Assembly: GCA_029856045.1 (NCBI GenBank) | Contig: JAHQWG010000037.1 | Location: 1-24,450 of the forward strand | Length of the DNA: 24,450 bases | DNA from: Promethearchaeia archaeon | GTDB lineage: Archaea; Asgardarchaeota; Lokiarchaeia; Sigyniarchaeales; SOKP01 | Reading direction: 5' to 3' | Part shown: piece after piece, positions 5,795 through 21,581 of the stretch | How the letters are laid out: every line of letters begins with the position of its first letter | How positions within the stretch are numbered: the first letter of the stretch is position 1 | Program-made: the position numbers and the translations under genes | Notes under the pieces: model-generated | Told to the model about the DNA's origin: nothing | Database searches by the model: none | Seen by the model: only the letters and a program-made list of their open reading frames with translations

Positions 5795-8341
5795 ATGTCG
5801 CTAAAAGAATTTACAAAGGAAGTATTTACGGAATATGGTTTTACCGAAGATATGATTGGTGTTTATTTAACTTTTCTAAGGCTTCCACGCGCTACTATAA
5901 GTCAAGTTTATATGTATATAAATAAAGATAAAGATATCGCGTTTGAAAGTTTAGAAGCGGATCTTCAGAAAATCACAGAAATTACCTCCGATTTAGTAAG
6001 TAAAGGATTCTTAAAGAAGATTCCCGGTATTGTGGATCGTTATATTCCACTTGAACCATTTTTTGAATTAATTATAAGGCAATCTAAAGTTTTACGAGAT
6101 GAGATATCAAAGACTAAGGATGATGTTCTTGCTGATCAAAGTAATCGCTTTGAAACTTTAGAAGGTATTCAGGATAATACAATAAATGAAGTTACAAACG
6201 CTGTTGAGACTCAAGTTAATGATTTTTTTGTCGATTCTGATAAAAAGGAGACTTATAAGAAGGAAAAAATTGAAGCAGCAAACAAGAGGCTTACAGATAC
6301 ATTAAAGTCTGTTGAAAATGAGTTGCATGGAACAGTTGATAAAGATTATTCTGAGTTAAAGAGTGATATTGATGAATTGGATTATGAGGAAAATTCTGAA
6401 TTAGATAAAATCTCGGAAACCCATAATAAAGCAACGAAAACTCTGGAGTTTAATTTTCACAACATACTCAACACACTAAATGAAACTGTTAAAAATATCT
6501 CTAGTACTTTCGTTGATACTTCTGAGAATGGTACAACAACCGCAAAAAATGATATTAATTCAATCATAAAAGCCTTACTTGATGATTTTTTAAATAGAGT
6601 CTCAAACTTAGAGACCGAATTGAAAAAGGATTTAGATTCTCATGTTGATCATCATAAAGATGAGGCTGCAGATCTTAAACCAAAGATGGAGAAAATTTTA
6701 GAAAAATATATGGATCAAATGAATAAGGTCATTGTTGATTTGAAAGAGAGAATTGATACTTTGTTTAAGGAACATATATCCACATTAAATAAAACATCAA
6801 CACAACTTCAAGAAAGGGTTAAGGATCATGTAGAAAATCGTCATAAGACGCTAGAGAACCAAGTTACACAATTTAGAGATACTACTCTGACATTAATGGA
6901 CAATTTGGTAACCACTAGTGAAAAACTCACTGATCTATCGTCTGAATTAAAAAAGAGAGGTGCTGCTTTTAAAGCGCTTTTCGCTGGGAAACATAAAAAA
7001 TATAAAGCGATTTATAAAGAGATTCAAGTAAAGGTAGAAACAATTTCGGATAAATTAAAGCAAGAATTTTCACAATCAACTGAGTTATATATTGAAGATA
7101 CTTCTAAAACTACGAGAGATTTAAAAAATGATGTAACAACAACTATTTCTCTAGAAAATGAGGAATTTAACAAGCAAACAACGGATTTAAATTCAAGAGC
7201 GCAAAGTACAATTGATACAGATATGGGACCTCTTGCAAATGACCTTGTAGGTGAAGTGGAGTCCACAATAGATGAAGGTGTAAAACATTGTTCAGATACT
7301 TCTTTAAAATTAAAAGATTCCTTAGAAACTTCCCTAAATCAACATCATGATGATTATAATAAGGCGATCACACGGCACAATGATGTTACAATAAAACATT
7401 ATAATGATTCCGATGCTGATGTGAAGAGGTTAAATACGGATTTTGTTAAAGATATGGATATTAAATTTAATGCTGGAGTTTCTGATGTAACAAATGAAGT
7501 TAATATTCAAATAAAGGATATTGATACCCATCGTGATAATTATAGAATAAAACAAAGAGAAATGTTTGATGAGCGTCTTAGCAAAATTCGAGATGATTTC
7601 GACAGATCAAAGCAATCTACAACATCTAAAGTTGATGGAGAGATTAACTTCTTTAATAATGATTGCAGCGAATTAGATAAAAATTTGTATGATATGCTTG
7701 AAGATCATAAAAATAAATATAAAGAGAATGCGACTACTCTACAAAGTAGCCTTTCAAACACGGTTAAGGACACGATTCAAAACGTCAAGGATGCAATTGC
7801 TGATTTTACTCTAACATTTATGAACTCAATAGATGATTGCAATGAAACAGCCGAAAAAAATGAAGAGAAATTGAATGACATCGATCAAGCTTCAGGTGCA
7901 ATCCCAGAAATTAAGAAAGTCAACACTTGGCATACTATTGGCGTGGAAGCGTTAATAGCTGCGATTAAAGATACAATTCATAGAACCAAGAGCTCCATTA
8001 TTATCGTTACTCCAATTGTTATTCCAGAAATATTGCAATTAATCTCACAGGTTGCATTTCAAAAGAAAGCAGCTCGATTTCTATTGACTTCACACTGGAA
8101 TCTTGCTCAATATGGTGATATTATAACTAAAATGAAAACCTTGGGGAATATTCAATTTCGCCAGTTAAAATCCAAGGGAGACTTTTACGCAGTTACTAGG
8201 GATGCAGAAGAAGTACTGCTTGCTCCTGCATCAAAGAAGGATGAGGACATAGTAGCGGTTATTAGCGAAGAGGAAGGTTATGCAATACTCTATAGTCAAT
8301 TTATTGGCCCAATATTTCAAGCGAACTCGCGGCCAATCTAA
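5795..8341 (+). CDS. TrmB-like wHTH + ~610-aa coiled-coil rod + inactive PLD-like (TrmB C-terminal-type) domain
   Basis: N-terminus YGFTEDMIGVYLTFL...LVSKGFLKKIPG...YIPLEP resembles a TrmB wHTH. Residues ~89-700 are helical with only two Pro. C-terminus IHRTKSSIIIVTP...FYAVTRDAEEVLLAP is PLD-fold-like without HxK. Confidence 0.7.
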   Translation: MSLKEFTKEVFTEYGFTEDMIGVYLTFLRLPRATISQVYMYINKDKDIAFESLEADLQKITEITSDLVSKGFLKKIPGIVDRYIPLEPFFELIIRQSKVLRDEISKTKDDVLADQSNRFETLEGIQDNTINEVTNAVETQVNDFFVDSDKKETYKKEKIEAANKRLTDTLKSVENELHGTVDKDYSELKSDIDELDYEENSELDKISETHNKATKTLEFNFHNILNTLNETVKNISSTFVDTSENGTTTAKNDINSIIKALLDDFLNRVSNLETELKKDLDSHVDHHKDEAADLKPKMEKILEKYMDQMNKVIVDLKERIDTLFKEHISTLNKTSTQLQERVKDHVENRHKTLENQVTQFRDTTLTLMDNLVTTSEKLTDLSSELKKRGAAFKALFAGKHKKYKAIYKEIQVKVETISDKLKQEFSQSTELYIEDTSKTTRDLKNDVTTTISLENEEFNKQTTDLNSRAQSTIDTDMGPLANDLVGEVESTIDEGVKHCSDTSLKLKDSLETSLNQHHDDYNKAITRHNDVTIKHYNDSDADVKRLNTDFVKDMDIKFNAGVSDVTNEVNIQIKDIDTHRDNYRIKQREMFDERLSKIRDDFDRSKQSTTSKVDGEINFFNNDCSELDKNLYDMLEDHKNKYKENATTLQSSLSNTVKDTIQNVKDAIADFTLTFMNSIDDCNETAEKNEEKLNDIDQASGAIPEIKKVNTWHTIGVEALIAAIKDTIHRTKSSIIIVTPIVIPEILQLISQVAFQKKAARFLLTSHWNLAQYGDIITKMKTLGNIQFRQLKSKGDFYAVTRDAEEVLLAPASKKDEDIVAVISEEEGYAILYSQFIGPIFQANSRPI

Positions 8342-11334: not shown

Positions 11335-12591
11335 TTACTTATTAGCCTCATCGTCGTCCGTGTGGATTCTTTTAAGGTCTATTTCACTATATCCTGGCAA
11401 AACATTTATGAGGTTTCTCATAGATCGTTCAACATCCTTACTTGAGGCAATATATCTTCCAATAATTAATATATCTGCTCCCATTTTAATTGCATATTGA
11501 GCAGTCTCGGGTTCTATCCCTCCTGCAACAGCTACAAGCACTCTATCTCTCCCAGAAACAAGTTTTTTATCTTTATAAAACTCTTTAATTTTTGGAACCC
11601 ATGCCCATTTCTGATGTTGAAGATCGTTAGTTTCTACACTTTCGGTATCTATTCCTCTATGTAATATTACTACATCAGGAATTTCCTTTAGTTGGGATAA
11701 TTTTACTATAGGGTCATCAACTTCCATCATATCTATATACGCATAGATACCTACTCTATGGGCTTCAAATATAAATTTATCAAGCATGACCGGAGATGCA
11801 AGACCTGAAGCAACCACAGCATCTGCGGTGGCATCAAAAGCAAAATCTACTTCAAGTTTTCCAACATCTAAAGTTTTTAAATCAGCGACTAAAAATACAT
11901 CTGGCAATTCTTCTCTTAGTTTTACAACTGCATCCATTCCATATTTTTTTATCAAGGGAGTTCCAGCTTCAATAATTATTCTATCACTTCTTGGTAATTG
12001 CGAAACAACTTTCATTTGATGGTCTATTGAGGGATGATCCAATGCTACCTGAATATAAGGTGGCCTCCATAAACGTGGCATCTTGATTCCAGAGACTGGG
12101 TGTTTTGCTCTATCTTTATCATAAAATATTTTCTTAATTGTAGGATATTTTTCAATTGCTCTTTTGATTGCTAATTTTGTTGCACCATAATTATATTGGT
12201 AAATTCGTCTATAATCTAAAGCACCTGGGTGAATAAAACAGCTAACTACAATCACCCAATCGTCGGCTTTATTGATTGGGATCACCCCTTCTTCTAAAGA
12301 ATCTGCTACGGCTTTGGCGATTGCTGCCTGGGCTGGTCCAAAAATTTTACTTGCATCCTCTAGATTTCCAATAGTAACTTTTGGAATTATTAAGGTTTGG
12401 GGTTTTGGTGTTAAATTAGGTCGAATTACGGCTAATAAAGCGCCGTGACCGGCACTAGGTTGGGTCATTGCATTTGCAAAAGCTTGTCCAACAGGTCCGT
12501 TTTTAGATCCAATCATTAAGTCAATGTGAGCTAGGTTTTCTTTCTCACCAAGAAGCGCTTCACCTATTAAAAATTCATCTTTAGAGGGCAT
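11335..12591 (-). CDS. fae-hps: Bifunctional formaldehyde-activating enzyme / 3-hexulose-6-phosphate synthase
   Basis: N-terminal Fae (IGEAL, AHIDLMIG, FGPAQAAIAKAVAD, YNYGATKLAI). C-terminal HPS (QVALD, IEAGTPLIK, VADLKTLDVG, LHRGID, VAVAGGI). ATG at 12591 is preferred. Confidence 0.95.
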   Translation of the reverse strand: MPSKDEFLIGEALLGEKENLAHIDLMIGSKNGPVGQAFANAMTQPSAGHGALLAVIRPNLTPKPQTLIIPKVTIGNLEDASKIFGPAQAAIAKAVADSLEEGVIPINKADDWVIVVSCFIHPGALDYRRIYQYNYGATKLAIKRAIEKYPTIKKIFYDKDRAKHPVSGIKMPRLWRPPYIQVALDHPSIDHQMKVVSQLPRSDRIIIEAGTPLIKKYGMDAVVKLREELPDVFLVADLKTLDVGKLEVDFAFDATADAVVASGLASPVMLDKFIFEAHRVGIYAYIDMMEVDDPIVKLSQLKEIPDVVILHRGIDTESVETNDLQHQKWAWVPKIKEFYKDKKLVSGRDRVLVAVAGGIEPETAQYAIKMGADILIIGRYIASSKDVERSMRNLINVLPGYSEIDLKRIHTDDDEANK

Positions 12592-12723
12592 ATAAATCAA
12601 TTTTTTTTTTAATTATTTTAAAATATTATCCACTATGTAAAAAGAGATTGTCAATTTATTAAAATTTAAGTATTATGAGGGTATTAGTTTGAGGTAAATT
12701 TGAAAGGGATATTTTTTTTAAAC

Positions 12724-13584
12724 TTATTCTAAATCAATTTTATCTTTATCAACTTTATTAACATTTAGTTGTTCTTTTATTGGCTCATCTATTAAATTTT
12801 CAGGAATTTTCATTGAATTAAAAATAGAATTCATTTCTCCAGGTCGATTGAATTTTTCTTCCATAAAAATTGGGATCTTTAATTGTTCGCCCTTAACTTT
12901 TAAATCTTCTGGAATATAATATTCTATCGCCTGAACTTTACCATCTTTTATTATTAATCTTATAGAATACTCGTATGTATTATCAAAATAGAAGCCATTA
13001 GGAATTTGTCCCAATTTTTTTATTGTTTTTATTTCATCAATTTTAGTTATATATGAATTGAGTTCAGATTCATAGGAATAGAAATCCCCTCCTATAAGAA
13101 TAATTTTAGGATGGAAATCTTCTGGTTGAGGGATAGATTTAAGCAATTCTAATGCATCTTTTTTATTTATACCAGAATGTACACACATATCTGTTAATTT
13201 TGTAGCTTTTTCTCCTGGTATAGTAAAACTATCATAATCATCTCGTGTAATAACTCGAGCCCTACCAGGTCCAACTTGTTGTTCAAATATTTTTTGAATT
13301 ATTTTATCATCAAAAGAATATTCATTCATATTAGAAATTCTATAAAATAATCTAAGTTGGGCTCTAAATTTTCTTGCTAAGATTCCCCCAAACATTTGCA
13401 GTTTTAAGGAAGTTTTTGGTCCATAGTAAGTCCAAATTCTTTTTTCATTATGATCAATTAAAATTAATACTTTCTTATTATCAATTAGATCTTTAACGGT
13501 TTCTTTTTTAGATATATCTGTAAATATTTCTTTTGTTTCCATATATGGTGGTTCTTTAAGTTCAATAACTTCAAAAACTTGCAT
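12724..13584 (-). CDS. Divergent gelsolin-domain protein with C-terminal extra domain (Asgard 1DGelX-like)
   Basis: N-terminus LIDNKKVLILIDHNEKRIWTYYGPKTSLKLQMFGGILARKFR fits the gelsolin core (L..v.liD...iW..G..s...f.a...A). The C-terminal beta-rich domain is PQPEDFHPKIILIG...IPNGFYF...IRLIIKDGKVQAIEY. SD GAGGT lies upstream. Confidence 0.6.
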   Translation of the reverse strand: MQVFEVIELKEPPYMETKEIFTDISKKETVKDLIDNKKVLILIDHNEKRIWTYYGPKTSLKLQMFGGILARKFRAQLRLFYRISNMNEYSFDDKIIQKIFEQQVGPGRARVITRDDYDSFTIPGEKATKLTDMCVHSGINKKDALELLKSIPQPEDFHPKIILIGGDFYSYESELNSYITKIDEIKTIKKLGQIPNGFYFDNTYEYSIRLIIKDGKVQAIEYYIPEDLKVKGEQLKIPIFMEEKFNRPGEMNSIFNSMKIPENLIDEPIKEQLNVNKVDKDKIDLE

Positions 13585-16167: not shown

Positions 16168-17658
16168 ATGTCTCAAAGTACAAGTAGATTCTTAAGGTTC
16201 TTCTCCCCATTTATCAGAGCAATGCCGGAAATAAGAACTCCAGATAGAGAAGTATCTTTTAAAGAAAAAATAATATGGACCGCATTAGCTTTAATTATTT
16301 ATTTAGTTATGAGTAATATCCCATTATATGGGGTTAGTATTCAACAAACTGAAGACTATTTCTATTGGTTGCGAGTTATTTTGGCCTCTCAGAGGGGGAC
16401 ATTAACGGAGCTGGGGATAGGTCCGATTGTAACCGCAGGTCTGATTATGCAGTTATTAATGGGTTCAGGTATTATAAAGATAAATATGGCAGATCCTTAT
16501 GATCGGAGTATGTTTACTGGAGCCCAAAAAATTTTAGCCATGTTTCTTACGGTATTTAACACTGTAGCATATTTATTTGGAGGTGCTTTTGGATCTCTTG
16601 AAGAAATTGGTCCTGCAGCTGTTATTTTCATATTTCTCCAACTGTTTTTTTCGGGAATGATTATAATTTTACTAGATGAAATGTTACAGAAAGGTTGGGG
16701 TATTGGCTCAGGCGTATCTCTTTTTATTGCAGCTGGAATTGCAGGACAAGTATTTTGGAATTGTTTTAGTTTCGTAGAAATGACTGGAGAAAATTATGAT
16801 AATATGCCCCGTGGTATAGTTATTGCGTTTTTCAAAGCGATTATTAATCCTGCTGATTCTGTTCCAATTGGGGATTTGTGGCTTCGTCCTTCCAATTTGC
16901 CTGGACTATTAAGTATCATAACAACAATAGGTATATTTATTATGGTTGTGTATTTTGAAAGTGTTAATATTGAGATTCCTCTGGCTTACAGTGGATATCG
17001 AGGGTTCCAGGGAAAGTACCCTATCAAATTGCTTTATGTATCAAATATTCCAGTTATTTTAGTATCAGCTCTATATGCAAATATACTGTTTTTAGGTCAA
17101 ATAATTGCAGGACCAAATTCAGCTCTCCGTGGAGTAATTCCTGATTTTTTGTTAAATGTAATTGCTTCTTATGCAGACGACCCAACAGCAACTGGTCCAG
17201 GTGGAAGTTATTTAAATCCAATTGGGGGTATTCTTTATTTAATGACGCCTCCGCAAGGGTTTGAATCAGTTCTTGGAGATCCTTTGCGAGCTCTTATTTA
17301 TTTGGGGATATTTATCGTATTCTGTGTAATATTCGGAAGGGTTTGGGTTGAAGTTTCTGGATTGGCTCCACGAGATATTGCAGGACAAATTATAGATAGT
17401 GGAATGGAAATTCCAGGATTTAGAAGATCTGAGAAGATTATTGAGCGAATCTTGGCCAGATATATACCCACATTGACAATATTATGCGGAATAATAGTAG
17501 GATTCCTTAGTTTCACCTCGGATGCGTTAGGAGCACTTTCTTCAGGAACAGGGTTATTAATCGCCATAGGAATTATTCATCAGTATGCCGAAACAATTTC
17601 AAAGGAAGCGGCTGCTGAACAATACCCAGCTCTTCGAGGATTTTTAGGATTAGATTAA
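16168..17658 (+). CDS. secY: Preprotein translocase subunit SecY/Sec61alpha
   Basis: GTLTELGIGPIVTAGLIMQLL, LDEMLQKGWGIGSGVSLFIA, YPIKLLYVSNIPVIL, IPGFR, SGTGLLIA. Confidence 0.98.
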   Translation: MSQSTSRFLRFFSPFIRAMPEIRTPDREVSFKEKIIWTALALIIYLVMSNIPLYGVSIQQTEDYFYWLRVILASQRGTLTELGIGPIVTAGLIMQLLMGSGIIKINMADPYDRSMFTGAQKILAMFLTVFNTVAYLFGGAFGSLEEIGPAAVIFIFLQLFFSGMIIILLDEMLQKGWGIGSGVSLFIAAGIAGQVFWNCFSFVEMTGENYDNMPRGIVIAFFKAIINPADSVPIGDLWLRPSNLPGLLSIITTIGIFIMVVYFESVNIEIPLAYSGYRGFQGKYPIKLLYVSNIPVILVSALYANILFLGQIIAGPNSALRGVIPDFLLNVIASYADDPTATGPGGSYLNPIGGILYLMTPPQGFESVLGDPLRALIYLGIFIVFCVIFGRVWVEVSGLAPRDIAGQIIDSGMEIPGFRRSEKIIERILARYIPTLTILCGIIVGFLSFTSDALGALSSGTGLLIAIGIIHQYAETISKEAAAEQYPALRGFLGLD

Positions 17659-17681: not shown

Positions 17682-18362
17682 TTGTTAATATTGATATTTC
17701 AGGAATCAAATAACTTTCTTGATTTTTTAATTTATCCTTTAGGATCAACAATTTTTGTTATGTTATTATCACTAACCATTGCACTTTTTTCTTCATTTTT
17801 AACAAAGAAATTAGTTGATACTGAAGAATTAGAGAGAAAACAGAAGCTTATTAAAAAACATAAAGAGGAAAAGAAAAAAATAATTGCACTCGCAGATACA
17901 AACCCAAAACAATATAGAAAGAAAGTAGTTAAGTGGAAAAGAAAGGAACAATTCATAAAAAACATCGAACAAGGGATGAGTTTACAGCGAATGAAACCTA
18001 TGTGTATCACTTTTTTACCGATGATGATAATGTTTGGAGTTATGAATCTTATTTTTGGTAGAAACCCCATTGCTTGTACACCCATGAATGCAAACGATGT
18101 CCCTTTAATTGGTGAATATATTTGGGCTGCAACAAATATCAATGAACTCCCGCCTGCATGGACTGCATTAGTTTGGGGGGAAGCACGTCATATTGGTCAA
18201 TTCGAAGGATGGATTGGTTTTACTGCGTGGTATTTCTTGAACTCCTTTTTTTTTAATACAATAATCAATCGATTATTAGGAATACAATCACAAACTACTG
18301 GTGGTATGGAAGGAATGTTTAAGGGAATGGGAGCAGAAGCACAAGACTTTCCTGATATATAA
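17682..18362 (+). CDS. EMC3/TMCO1 (DUF106, Oxa1-superfamily) membrane insertase-like protein
   Basis: TM1, basic coiled coil, MKPMCITFLP, then GFTAWYFLNS motif; lies directly after secY; SD AGGAGG before TTG. Confidence 0.9.
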   Translation: MLILIFQESNNFLDFLIYPLGSTIFVMLLSLTIALFSSFLTKKLVDTEELERKQKLIKKHKEEKKKIIALADTNPKQYRKKVVKWKRKEQFIKNIEQGMSLQRMKPMCITFLPMMIMFGVMNLIFGRNPIACTPMNANDVPLIGEYIWAATNINELPPAWTALVWGEARHIGQFEGWIGFTAWYFLNSFFFNTIINRLLGIQSQTTGGMEGMFKGMGAEAQDFPDI

Positions 18363-19973: not shown

Positions 19974-20612
19974 TCAGAGATTTAATTTGTTTTTAAACTC
20001 TTTAAAAATTGAATAAATTTTTTCTGCCAAATTATCTTGTTCTTGAGGTGTTTGCATAATATCATCAGGTAATTTTTTAATTTTTGTATAAAATGAATCA
20101 ATTTTTTCTTTAATTGAATCAAGCCCAGGAAATTTTTCTAAAGAGATTAATAAATCAAGAAATAATTTTTTTAGTAATTTACCAGTTGCAACATCTCTTA
20201 ATTTCAATGCGTCCATCAAGGTAATAAAACTACTAGTAATTTCTGTTGAGATTCCTGGTAACTCTAAAACTGCTTGTTGAAGTTTAGGTCTTAGATTTTC
20301 ATCCGCTTTTTTATAATTTGTATCTACTTGGCTTGGATTAAATTTCAAGTTAGAAACATTGTTAATTATGTCAATAGCTTGATGATAATCTTCAGAGAAT
20401 CCCATTTTTTCTAAAAATATATTTAAATTTATCCCCTTATCTTGTAATGAGAAATTAAATTGAATTAATTCTTGGATTGTGGACTTTATTGATTTTAAGT
20501 AGAAATTTTCTTGAATTTCTCCTTTTGAATATTTATTATGAATATTTAAGATAGTTTTAACTAAGGCGAATAGTTCTGATTCAATTTCAAGGATTGATTT
20601 CTGGTTTTTCAT
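19974..20612 (-). CDS. vps28: ESCRT-I subunit Vps28 homolog (N-terminal core and C-terminal four-helix bundle)
   Basis: N-terminal SELFALVKTI...KYSKGEIQENFY resembles the Vps28 aELySii.tl..lEkaY.kd.I....Y pattern. C-terminal EITSSFITLMDALKL...LFLDLLISL matches the Vps28 FITxMDALKL signature. Confidence 0.88.
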   Translation of the reverse strand: MKNQKSILEIESELFALVKTILNIHNKYSKGEIQENFYLKSIKSTIQELIQFNFSLQDKGINLNIFLEKMGFSEDYHQAIDIINNVSNLKFNPSQVDTNYKKADENLRPKLQQAVLELPGISTEITSSFITLMDALKLRDVATGKLLKKLFLDLLISLEKFPGLDSIKEKIDSFYTKIKKLPDDIMQTPQEQDNLAEKIYSIFKEFKNKLNL

Positions 20613-20633: not shown

Positions 20634-21581
20634 TTATAAAGTTCCAAGAATCGTTGGTTTTAATAAGAAAAATATTATAGCGGTTATTATACCTATAGAA
20701 ACAGAGGACAAATATACTCGGTAAGTAGATGAATTGGCGAGTTCTCTGATTGCAATTGTCATATTCATTGGGATCCAAACAATTAACACAATGGCATCGA
20801 GAATATCTAACACCATCCAAGTTGGAGATTGAAAAAATGTGCTAAATACAGTGCTGTAAGAAGAAAAGTCAAAGGGGAGGGATATTTGTTGGTTAGGTAT
20901 TGCAATTAGGATAATTAAGACTTTTATAAATCCTGTAATTATAAGAGGCGTAAAAGCACAGAATAACATATTATATTTATTAGCTTCTTGTTTTTGAAGG
21001 AGAGTTCCTGATTTATATATGCTAAATACAGATGCTTCTTCTGCCAATTTTCCCTTTTCTTTCTTATCTTTGTCTTTTCTTTTCCCAAACCGATCCTCCA
21101 ATCTTTCAGTGAAACCTATAGAGTAATTTGCTCCTTTTATAAAAAAGTAGGATAAAACTATAAGAAGCAAAAAGTAATAAACAAAGCCAAAGGCAAGAAA
21201 TGCTATATAAACAGATAAAAAATAACCAAATAATATAGTTACATCATAAGGATTAACAGGAGTTCCATTTATATCAATAATTTGAAAATGTGAAAATAAT
21301 GCTAACCCAAAAAGGCCATAAATCAATGAATTAAAAAGAATGATAAAAATCCCGGGGGCGGAATCTCGCTTATGATTAATATCCCAGAATGCTTTCGCAG
21401 GATTGATGATTAAGAGATAGAATTTAGTCAGAAAACTCTCTGGATTGCTCCATTCTGCTTCATATCTCTTAAAAAAAAGAAATTTTTCAATGCGTTCTAC
21501 GCGCAATCTTTTACCACAGAAAGAGCAGACATAACTTCCAGAAGGGGGGCTATTCCCGCACCTTGGGCAACGAATCGACAA
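20634..21581 (-). CDS. Zinc-ribbon + Yip1-like multi-pass membrane protein
   Basis: CPRCG-x8-CSFCG zinc ribbon; Yip1-like LLIINPAKAFWDI opening; about 5 TM segments; TTG start. Confidence 0.65.
   Translation of the reverse strand: MSIRCPRCGNSPPSGSYVCSFCGKRLRVERIEKFLFFKRYEAEWSNPESFLTKFYLLIINPAKAFWDINHKRDSAPGIFIILFNSLIYGLFGLALFSHFQIIDINGTPVNPYDVTILFGYFLSVYIAFLAFGFVYYFLLLIVLSYFFIKGANYSIGFTERLEDRFGKRKDKDKKEKGKLAEEASVFSIYKSGTLLQKQEANKYNMLFCAFTPLIITGFIKVLIILIAIPNQQISLPFDFSSYSTVFSTFFQSPTWMVLDILDAIVLIVWIPMNMTIAIRELANSSTYRVYLSSVSIGIITAIIFFLLKPTILGTL

Follow-up and report, generated by a model that had tools for sequence, protein, structure and literature searches.

What kind of protein begins and ends like a TrmB-family member and carries some 610 helical residues between its wHTH (winged helix-turn-helix) and phospholipase D (PLD)-like domains, and what could it be used for? 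This question is raised by a gene, here denoted the rod gene, in a 24,450-nucleotide stretch of DNA from a Promethearchaeia archaeon (Asgardarchaeota; assembly GCA_029856045.1, contig JAHQWG010000037.1, positions 1 to 24,450), hereafter the window. A preliminary description, made from the sequence alone, had recognized in its product TrmB-like ends separated by an acidic rod with 11-residue periodicity, and had suggested that the rod folds back on itself. Our analysis indicates, with high confidence, that this is a TrmB/TrmBL2-derived protein in which the short linker helix was replaced by two hendecad helices of ~300 residues each that form an antiparallel, acidic rod ~45 nm long, with both TrmB-derived domains at one end and a conserved, exposed Phe/Leu/Trp loop, accompanied by Gly and a run of Lys, at the other. 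The same high confidence covers the plan of the rod, which consists of a conserved neck, a variable shaft whose strands gain or lose equal numbers of residues, and a conserved joint. Combined with a function as a spacer, this architecture makes up what we consider the best explanation as a whole, with a probability of roughly 45%.

To trace the fold of the rod, we counted residues between invariant anchors in 120 orthologs, using the common 751-aa form as the reference and comparing the variable regions of the N-terminal arm (N-arm; reference residues 174–261) and the C-terminal arm (C-arm; reference residues 544–635). Relative to the reference, the lengths of the two arms (N,C) differed by (0,0), (11,11), (29,29), (40,40), (44,44), (62,62), (73,73) or (84,84), with r = 0.999; the window protein belongs to the (44,44) class, and the one (4,0) row stems from a slip in aligning a single 751-aa sequence. 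All insert-length classes are 11n or 11n+7, so that the helical phase is preserved. The centres of the two inserts in the window protein add up to 786 (199.5 + 586.5), making the insert sites mirror-symmetric about residue 393.

Co-variation between the arms yields the same register. Among the 100 top N-arm × C-arm pairs by mutual information (MI) with average product correction (APC), 24 fall within 8 residues of i+j = 786, where 6.5 are expected (p = 2e-8), and the maximum of the windowed MI is located exactly at i+j = 786. The AlphaFold2 (AF2) model built from a 75-sequence alignment, with a mean predicted local distance difference test (pLDDT) score of 73.9 (single-sequence AF2 reached only 41.6 and was not usable), contains helices at residues 89–387 and 419–701, with breaks only at 388–389, 396 and 416–418. 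This model superposes on the chemoreceptor structure 2ch7 over residues 233–551 (308 aligned), on 3g67 over residues 283–502 and on the Maxi antifreeze protein over residues 292–492; the chemoreceptor superpositions, with Z-scores of 9.5–11.6 and root-mean-square deviations (rmsd) of 9–11 Å, lie in a range that the comparison tool itself calls unspecific for long helices. A designed hairpin, when superposed, spans residues 115 to 670 of the model at an rmsd of 1.9 Å, again with i+j of ~785. Thus, the paired indels, the co-variation, the AF2 model and the hairpin superposition agree on the fold-back, which we regard as well supported. On this point, the preliminary description was accurate, both in the antiparallel course of the chain with ~300 residues per arm over ~45 nm and in its expectations that the arms change by equal amounts across orthologs and that AlphaFold would place a turn near the midpoint; the centre of symmetry, which it put at about residue 388, has to be moved to residue 393, where the insert symmetry and the co-variation locate the centre of the register.

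The paired indels and the co-variation fit an intramolecular hairpin and an extended antiparallel homodimer alike. The latter would be a rod of ~90 nm, with a composite wHTH/PLD-like head made of two chains at each end and the basic-aromatic motifs meeting in mid-rod, and it would have a parallel in TrmB itself, whose dimer is described as domain-swapped through antiparallel pairing of the linker helices, with Phe81/Ile91' and Phe84/Leu88' contacts (PMC4158304). We nevertheless favour the hairpin because the helix-breaking residues G389 and G398 and the four-residue aromatic loop are conserved exactly at the register centre, because the hydrophobic periodicity collapses over residues 364–418, and because the AF2 helix breaks at the same place in a model that superposes on true hairpins. 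We therefore consider the extended dimer distinctly unlikely.

The rod combines a regular repeat with a strongly acidic surface. Fourier analysis of the hydrophobic residues over positions 96–700 gives a single sharp peak at 3.66 residues (power 8.6, compared with a maximum of 2.6 in 200 shuffles) and nothing at 3.5, and the 11-residue rows set out previously read exactly as stated from residue 272. In the N-arm, the family-averaged hydrophobic phase remains constant at 225–278 degrees over residues 89–374, that is, through ~26 unbroken hendecads, and the C-arm shows one phase shift, of ~75 degrees, near residues 470–500. The core slots are i mod 11 = 1, 5 and 8/9, with three main hydrophobic slots per 11 residues and a LIVMF content of 26%; judged by this composition, the seam is narrow, as in a two-stranded coil. 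The net charge of the rod is −39, and its length, calculated from 299 residues at ~0.15 nm per residue, is ~45 nm, with a range of ~38 to ~50 nm among the orthologs. P296 and P479 are indeed the only prolines in the rod of the window protein, but the earlier argument from their symmetric placement does not carry over to the family: P296 is found in all 120 orthologs and P479 in only 7, those of the window's clade, so that the symmetric arrangement is an accident of that clade. The expected absence of Walker motifs and of a transmembrane (TM) segment was confirmed, with no match to the Walker A pattern in the protein, no SMC, AAA or ABC family in Pfam and NCBIfam scans, and the most hydrophobic 19-mer lying in the core of the folded PLD-like domain. 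Matches within the rod to ZorA and SpiroCoCo of NCBIfam, and to the Pfam families Exonuc_VII_L, WXG100 and tape measure, are far below the cut-offs and were discarded as coiled-coil noise.

The 11/3 periodicity is also the hallmark of the apolipoprotein, perilipin and LEA families, in which amphipathic helices cover or surround lipid instead of pairing among themselves, and the protein does match Pfam Apolipoprotein A1/A4/E (PF01442) with E = 4e-10, with ApoA-IV being the only full-length match among PDB sequences. The PF01442 score of 40 bits, however, is far below the cut-off of 90, and the narrow seam, the net acidic charge and the lack of regular Pro punctuation do not suit a lipid-wrapping protein. 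Moreover, the matched arm lengths, the invariant polar residues in the core and the i+j co-variation imply a defined helix-helix interface, leaving this alternative highly improbable.

Along the protein, conservation peaks in the first 20 residues, in the neck (residues 81–120 with 641–680), in a mid-rod module, at the tip and in the last eight residues; the shaft, which separates the neck from the mid-rod module, holds all the paired indels. The two halves of this module, residues 261–320 and 466–525, are partners at i+j = 786. H283, H287, P296, C499 and T502 are each present in 120 of the 120 orthologs; C499 is the only conserved Cys and marks the only column with a Cys frequency above 0.3. 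H283 and H287 lie in or next to core slots and face C499 and T502 (283 + 499 = 782; 287 + 499 = 786), and in a diverged lineage, P0122, Y283 and A499 occur jointly. Opposite P296 lies the single phase shift in the C-arm, a run of i-to-i+4 spacings over residues 480–504. Taken from sequence and register, these features make it possible that the module is a conserved joint with a metal or hydrogen-bond clamp, and a metal clamp formed by the two His and the Cys could allow the strut to bend or stiffen. Prediction of a complex of the two joint halves with a zinc ion gave a score of 0.09, relative to a mark of 0.32, and counts neither for nor against such a clamp.

Conserved His residues occur in the rod also at positions 222, 327, 330, 350, 517, 518, 528, 535 and 638. 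With these nine positions added to H283, H287 and C499, invariant in core slots, the rod could be viewed as the sensory part of a regulator that would use the His/His/Cys cluster and the eleven conserved His of the rod to detect metal, redox state or pH, or the tip to detect the state of the membrane, and would switch a still-functional TrmB-type head. The ancestry of the protein among ligand-controlled regulators (PMC4158304) and the resemblance of the model to chemoreceptor signalling hairpins are compatible with this possibility. However, the Tyr that reads DNA in the TrmB family is lost and the effector (sugar-binding) subdomain of TrmB is absent, as detailed below, sensing requires neither a 45-nm rod with matched arms nor lineage-specific rod lengths, and the neighbourhood contains no linked gene that would be a regulated target. 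On balance, we find a sensor-regulator improbable.

We then turned to the two ends of the protein. The single protein scores 17.3 bits with Pfam TrmB (PF01978) over residues 13–88, below the cut-off of 25.6, which is passed by the distant relatives P0150, P0153 and P0195 and by a paralog in the same genome. A profile of 20 N-termini from the family, compared with all PDB sequences, matched T. litoralis TrmB best (3qph_A, E = 2.4e-7), followed by MJ223 and TrmBL2 (5bpd, E = 1.6e-4). In the AF2 model, the domain consists of helices 18–29, 35–44 and 57–69 and a wing formed by strands 73–76 and 82–85, and it resembles the wHTH domains of Fur and MecI with VIA Z-scores of ~10.

At the C-terminus, where the alignment-based AF2 model has a pLDDT of 84–91, residues 710–848 superpose in VIA on residues 110–241 of TrmB (2f5t_X) with Z = 17.7 and an rmsd of 1.9 Å over 130 residues, and the domain reaches Z = 17.3 with 3qph_A. 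In Foldseek, TrmBL2 chains rank at the top (5bpd_C, 3.9e-8), the PLD-fold proteins F13, FAM83, NucT, Nuc and Zucchini come after them, and TrmB is matched at 4e-7; the PLD fold is likewise apparent from VIA Z-scores of 12–14.8 to NucT, Nuc, Zucchini, FAM83B and F13. At the sequence level, identity to the TrmB/TrmBL2 structures is 12–17%, a profile of 30 C-terminal domains ranked 3qph_A first at its residues 110–223, weakly (E = 0.12), and Pfam Regulator_TrmB (PF11495) matches 11 of 30 family members (best 3.2e-6), with E = 0.036 for the window protein. No HxK(x)4D motif is present in residues 702–848, the sole match to this pattern in the protein being at residue 286, within the rod. Invariant residues of the domain are K732, S733, N785, R789, R802, D803, E805 and E806, and the conserved GNIQFRQ stretch (N785, Q787, R789) aligns with the equivalent stretch of TrmB. 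The last residue of the protein aligns to TrmB 241, and the second, sugar-binding subdomain (the Gly320/Glu326 barrel) is therefore missing, as it is from TrmBL2 (PMC4158304). Given the profile match of the N-terminus, the fold comparison of the C-domain, the lack of an HKD motif and the missing barrel, the ends had been described correctly from the outset, as a TrmB-like N-terminus (residues 1–88) and a PLD-like domain without HKD. The further suggestion that they re-form a DNA-binding TrmB head holds only in the sense that both domains are located at the same end, because their mutual arrangement in TrmBL2 was not recovered (rmsd 9.9).

Does this head still bind DNA? In the TrmB family, DNA is recognized by Tyr50 and less so by Asp51, two residues of the recognition helix that are conserved in TrmB, TrmBL1-3, VNG1451C and MalR (PMC4158304). 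We transferred the recognition-helix columns of TrmB to the 120 orthologs from the alignment of the N-terminal profile to TrmB. The Tyr50-equivalent column (residue 61) contains Leu in 55 sequences, Glu in 21, Ile in 14, Val in 12, Thr in 9 and a few other residues, and in none of the orthologs Tyr; the Arg48-equivalent column is variable, and the Asp51 equivalent is Glu or Asp in 113. With the Tyr50 column never Tyr and the Arg48 column variable, the TrmB-like mode of reading a sequence is lost. The positions on the exposed face of the recognition helix vary and are often acidic, and the wHTH domain has a net charge of −3; the wing residues K74 and R82 are nearly invariant, and by sequence, non-specific DNA binding through the conserved wing is possible.

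These observations bear directly on an alternative in which the protein would organize the chromosome or tether DNA to the membrane, with a TrmBL2-like head binding DNA non-specifically and the tip attached to the membrane or to another DNA. In line with such a role, the wing is nearly invariant, and the nearest relatives of known structure are TrmB and the chromatin protein TrmBL2, which binds coding as well as intergenic DNA; MreA, which belongs to the TrmB family and has no such Tyr, is nonetheless described as regulating globally (PMC4158304). Nonetheless, the replacement of the recognition Tyr, the variable Arg48 equivalent, the poorly conserved and often acidic recognition face of a net negative wHTH next to a strongly acidic rod, and the below-threshold Pfam TrmB score of the single sequence make it unlikely. 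The role of chromosome organiser or filament protein originally proposed for the protein thus stays a conjecture.

The opposite end of the rod is of a different character, with a net charge of +8 in 19 residues as against −39 for the rod. The apex is a loop of ~11 residues (388–398), without Cys and without a globular domain, in which Phe/Leu/Phe are exposed between G389 and G398 in the window protein, and all orthologs share the pattern Lys/Arg-Gly-(Phe/Leu)Phe-(Trp/Phe/Thr)-x-Gly-Lys4-Tyr. With lysines encircling a small aromatic loop, on a rod that is otherwise acidic, the tip has the look of a peripheral membrane anchor and, by its composition, probably docks on a membrane. In the function that we propose, the protein would be an ATPase-free spacer of fixed length: the basic-aromatic tip would dock on an anionic surface, which is most likely that of the membrane on its cytoplasmic side; repelled by this surface, the acidic rod would stand off it, and the head would be held at 38–50 nm, without nucleotide hydrolysis, to bind a partner. 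This partner might be a protein, a ligand that carries phosphate and is bound in the dead PLD pocket, or DNA via the conserved wing, and the His/His/Cys cluster may hold the strands together at the joint, possibly via a metal ion. We offer this function tentatively, giving it somewhat less than even odds.

Several observations weigh against the spacer or the architecture beneath it, beyond the equal fit of the indels and the co-variation to an extended dimer. Co-variation among the wHTH domain, the neck and the PLD-like domain is uninformative since these parts barely vary. Comparison of neighbourhoods revealed no conserved same-strand partner of the rod gene, only housekeeping synteny, and hence no operon partner that would point to a pathway. 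The tip could equally well bind nucleic acid or make tip-to-tip contacts. Finally, in distant long relatives from other Asgard lineages, rod and head are retained and no obvious basic-aromatic midpoint is seen, so that the function of the tip is perhaps specific to the ortholog group of the window protein.

In favour of a core role for the protein, it is near-universal in its order and lies in conserved housekeeping synteny beside Fae-Hps and S6e. At E ≤ 1e-20, the rod gene is found in 121 of 134 genomes of the window's GTDB family and in 138 of 153 genomes of its order, with one locus per genome; elsewhere in the phylum, there are weak matches only. An exhaustive search of 1.8 billion representatives recovered 184 relatives, one group of which comprises proteins of 700–1788 aa with the same head, a period of 3.66–3.68 and no obvious basic-aromatic midpoint, whereas two others consist of stand-alone C-domains of ~190 aa and of C-domains fused to TPR arrays. 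Among the long proteins, P0226, P0249, P0256 and P0261 (1300–1788 aa), from other Asgard lineages, are TrmB-headed and show a stronger 3.67-residue period, with a power of up to 24.8, and no basic-aromatic midpoint patch. The TrmB-type PLD-like domain occurs on its own (~190 aa) or with TPR arrays, plus HhH or zinc-ribbon domains, in P0146, P0142, P0173, P0163 and P0143/P0144/P0149; these stand-alone and TPR-fused forms suggest that the domain does not only form part of regulators but is a binding module that is mobile. All named relatives that we looked up come from Asgard metagenome-assembled genomes (Hod-, Hel-, Baldr-, Frey- and Sigynarchaeota) and are annotated as hypothetical or "helix-turn-helix domain-containing". 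In agreement with the initial impression that the protein had not been characterized, full-text literature searches aimed at it found no description of the rod protein; a 2026 preprint includes a "TrmBL" class in its proteome counts and gives no detail.

A very distant paralog is encoded on another contig of the same genome (L005:7293-8837, + strand). This protein of 514 aa has a TrmB wHTH scoring 28.5 bits, above the cut-off, a helical middle of ~260 aa that shows no hendecad peak, and a PLD-like C-domain as in the rod protein. Upstream of it, on the same strand, are open reading frames (ORFs) at L005:4481-6211 (576 aa) and 6212-7339 (375 aa), both without a Pfam match, the former having hydrophobic segments at both termini plus a basic tail; the three genes may form an operon.

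Table 1. Features of the rod gene and its product; coordinates refer to the window.
Feature	Residues	Coordinates	Strand	Basis or remark
Whole rod gene		5795..8341	+	848 aa plus stop; stand-alone transcription unit
TrmB-type winged helix-turn-helix	1–88	5795..6058	+	Family profile, AF2, fold comparison
N-arm	89–387	6059..6955	+	One continuous AF2 helix, ~44 nm, unbroken hendecad register
N-arm half of paired 44-residue insertion	178–221	6326..6457	+	Identical arm-length classes, relative to the 751-aa form
N-arm half of mid-rod joint	261–320	6575..6754	+	Conservation 0.74–0.85; invariant H283, H287, P296
His-x3-His and Cys residues of joint	H283, H287; C499	6641-6655; 7289-7291	+	Candidate metal clamp
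Tip, basic-aromatic loop	386–404	6950..7006	+	Net +8; turn at about residues 388–398, between G389 and G398
C-arm	419–701	7049..7897	+	AF2 helix; antiparallel partner of N-arm by MI at i+j = 786
C-arm half of mid-rod joint	466–525	7190..7369	+	Invariant C499, T502, H517
C-arm half of paired 44-residue insertion	565–608	7487..7618	+	Identical arm-length classes
PLD-like domain of TrmB/TrmBL2 type, without HKD	702–848	7898..8338	+	VIA, Foldseek, Pfam, AF2

The rod gene (Table 1) is preceded by a 337-bp AT-rich spacer and followed, directly after the stop codon, by an oligo-T tract, in a window with a G+C content of ~31%; its neighbours are a divergent gene for an M48 peptidase and a convergent gene for nitronate monooxygenase. 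The window contains genes typical of Asgard archaea, including those for VPS28, SecY, an EMC3/TMCO1-like protein, a Fae-Hps fusion and S6e. In orthologs of ~50% identity, there is a recurring order of the rod gene, convergent Fae-Hps, a ~275-aa unknown protein and S6e, which indicates vertical housekeeping synteny rather than an operon. The Fae-Hps fusion (11335-12600, − strand), which joins a formaldehyde-activating enzyme to a HUMPS/OMPdecase-family domain, is convergent with the region of the rod gene and is syntenic across genera. The ORF at 12724-13584 (− strand; 286 aa) matches no Pfam family, and three other Lokiarchaeial loci carry counterparts of 271–277 aa in the corresponding place, adjacent to Fae-Hps or close by; it counts as a conserved unknown. 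Further along the window, a VPS28 (ESCRT-I) homolog (19974-20612, − strand) adjoins a 315-aa ORF without a Pfam match (20634-21581, − strand), and SecY (16168-17658) and the EMC3/TMCO1-like insertase (17682-18362) lie near VPS28; eukaryote-signature genes of this kind are typical of Asgard archaea.

Among prokaryotes, Asgard archaea are the closest relatives of eukaryotes, and which factors organize their cell interior and membrane is an open question. The rod protein, which is near-universal in one Asgard order, strongly conserved, controlled in length, built on the scaffold of a regulator and provided with defined ends, is of interest in this context. Should the tip attach to the membrane and the head serve to capture DNA or a protein, these archaea would possess a simple, nucleotide-independent means of setting a distance of 40–50 nm, a principle so far tied to eukaryotic tethers. 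Irrespective of function, the family is a very clean natural case of co-evolution of arm lengths in an antiparallel hendecad coiled coil, which should be useful for coiled-coil design and structure prediction.

Among known proteins, the rod protein is closest to TrmBL2 of Thermococcales (5bpd, 5bpi, 5box, 5bqt) and TrmB (3qph, 2f5t), with which it shares the order of wHTH, helix and PLD-like domain and aligned GN..(F)RQ and D..E(V) motifs; as TrmBL2 does, it stops at the end of the PLD-like subdomain and has no sugar-binding barrel. It departs from both in lacking the recognition residue Tyr50 and in having, instead of an amphipathic linker helix (alpha5) of ~30 aa, a hendecad rod of 2 × ~300 residues with a specialized tip. 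The cytoplasmic hairpins of methyl-accepting chemotaxis proteins (MCPs; 2ch7, 3g67, 3zx6) provide the best structural superpositions of the rod, as a two-helix hairpin across residues 233–551, but the rod protein has no match to the MCP signal domain and differs in its ends and periodicity.

The logic of the proposed spacer is similar to that of golgins and EEA1, rods of tens of nanometres with a membrane element at one end, a capture domain at the other and no ATPase. Those proteins are parallel dimers with GRIP, FYVE or TM anchors, whereas the rod protein folds back, its anchor would be a loop and its capture domain is TrmB-derived, and there is no sequence relationship. Extending this analogy, one can speculate that Lokiarchaeia (and, with other rod lengths, a wider Asgard group) have ATPase-free rulers or tethers of their own, built on the TrmB scaffold, in which a loop-anchored strut of 38–50 nm, based on the inner side of the membrane, would hold a capture head at a lineage-specific distance in the manner of golgins and EEA1; we consider this doubtful.

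With the arms of SMC, Rad50 and MukB, the rod protein has in common a long intramolecular antiparallel coiled coil that unites the N- and C-terminal parts in one head, evolutionarily matched arm lengths and a conserved discontinuity, a joint or elbow, part-way along. It has, however, no ABC ATPase head, Walker motifs, hinge domain or CxxC zinc hook, the interrupted heptads of those arms contrast with the unbroken 11/3 register of its N-arm, and no homology was detected. The rod protein thus gives the TrmB family a new architectural variant, in which the logic of the SMC and Rad50 arms is copied without the ATPase.

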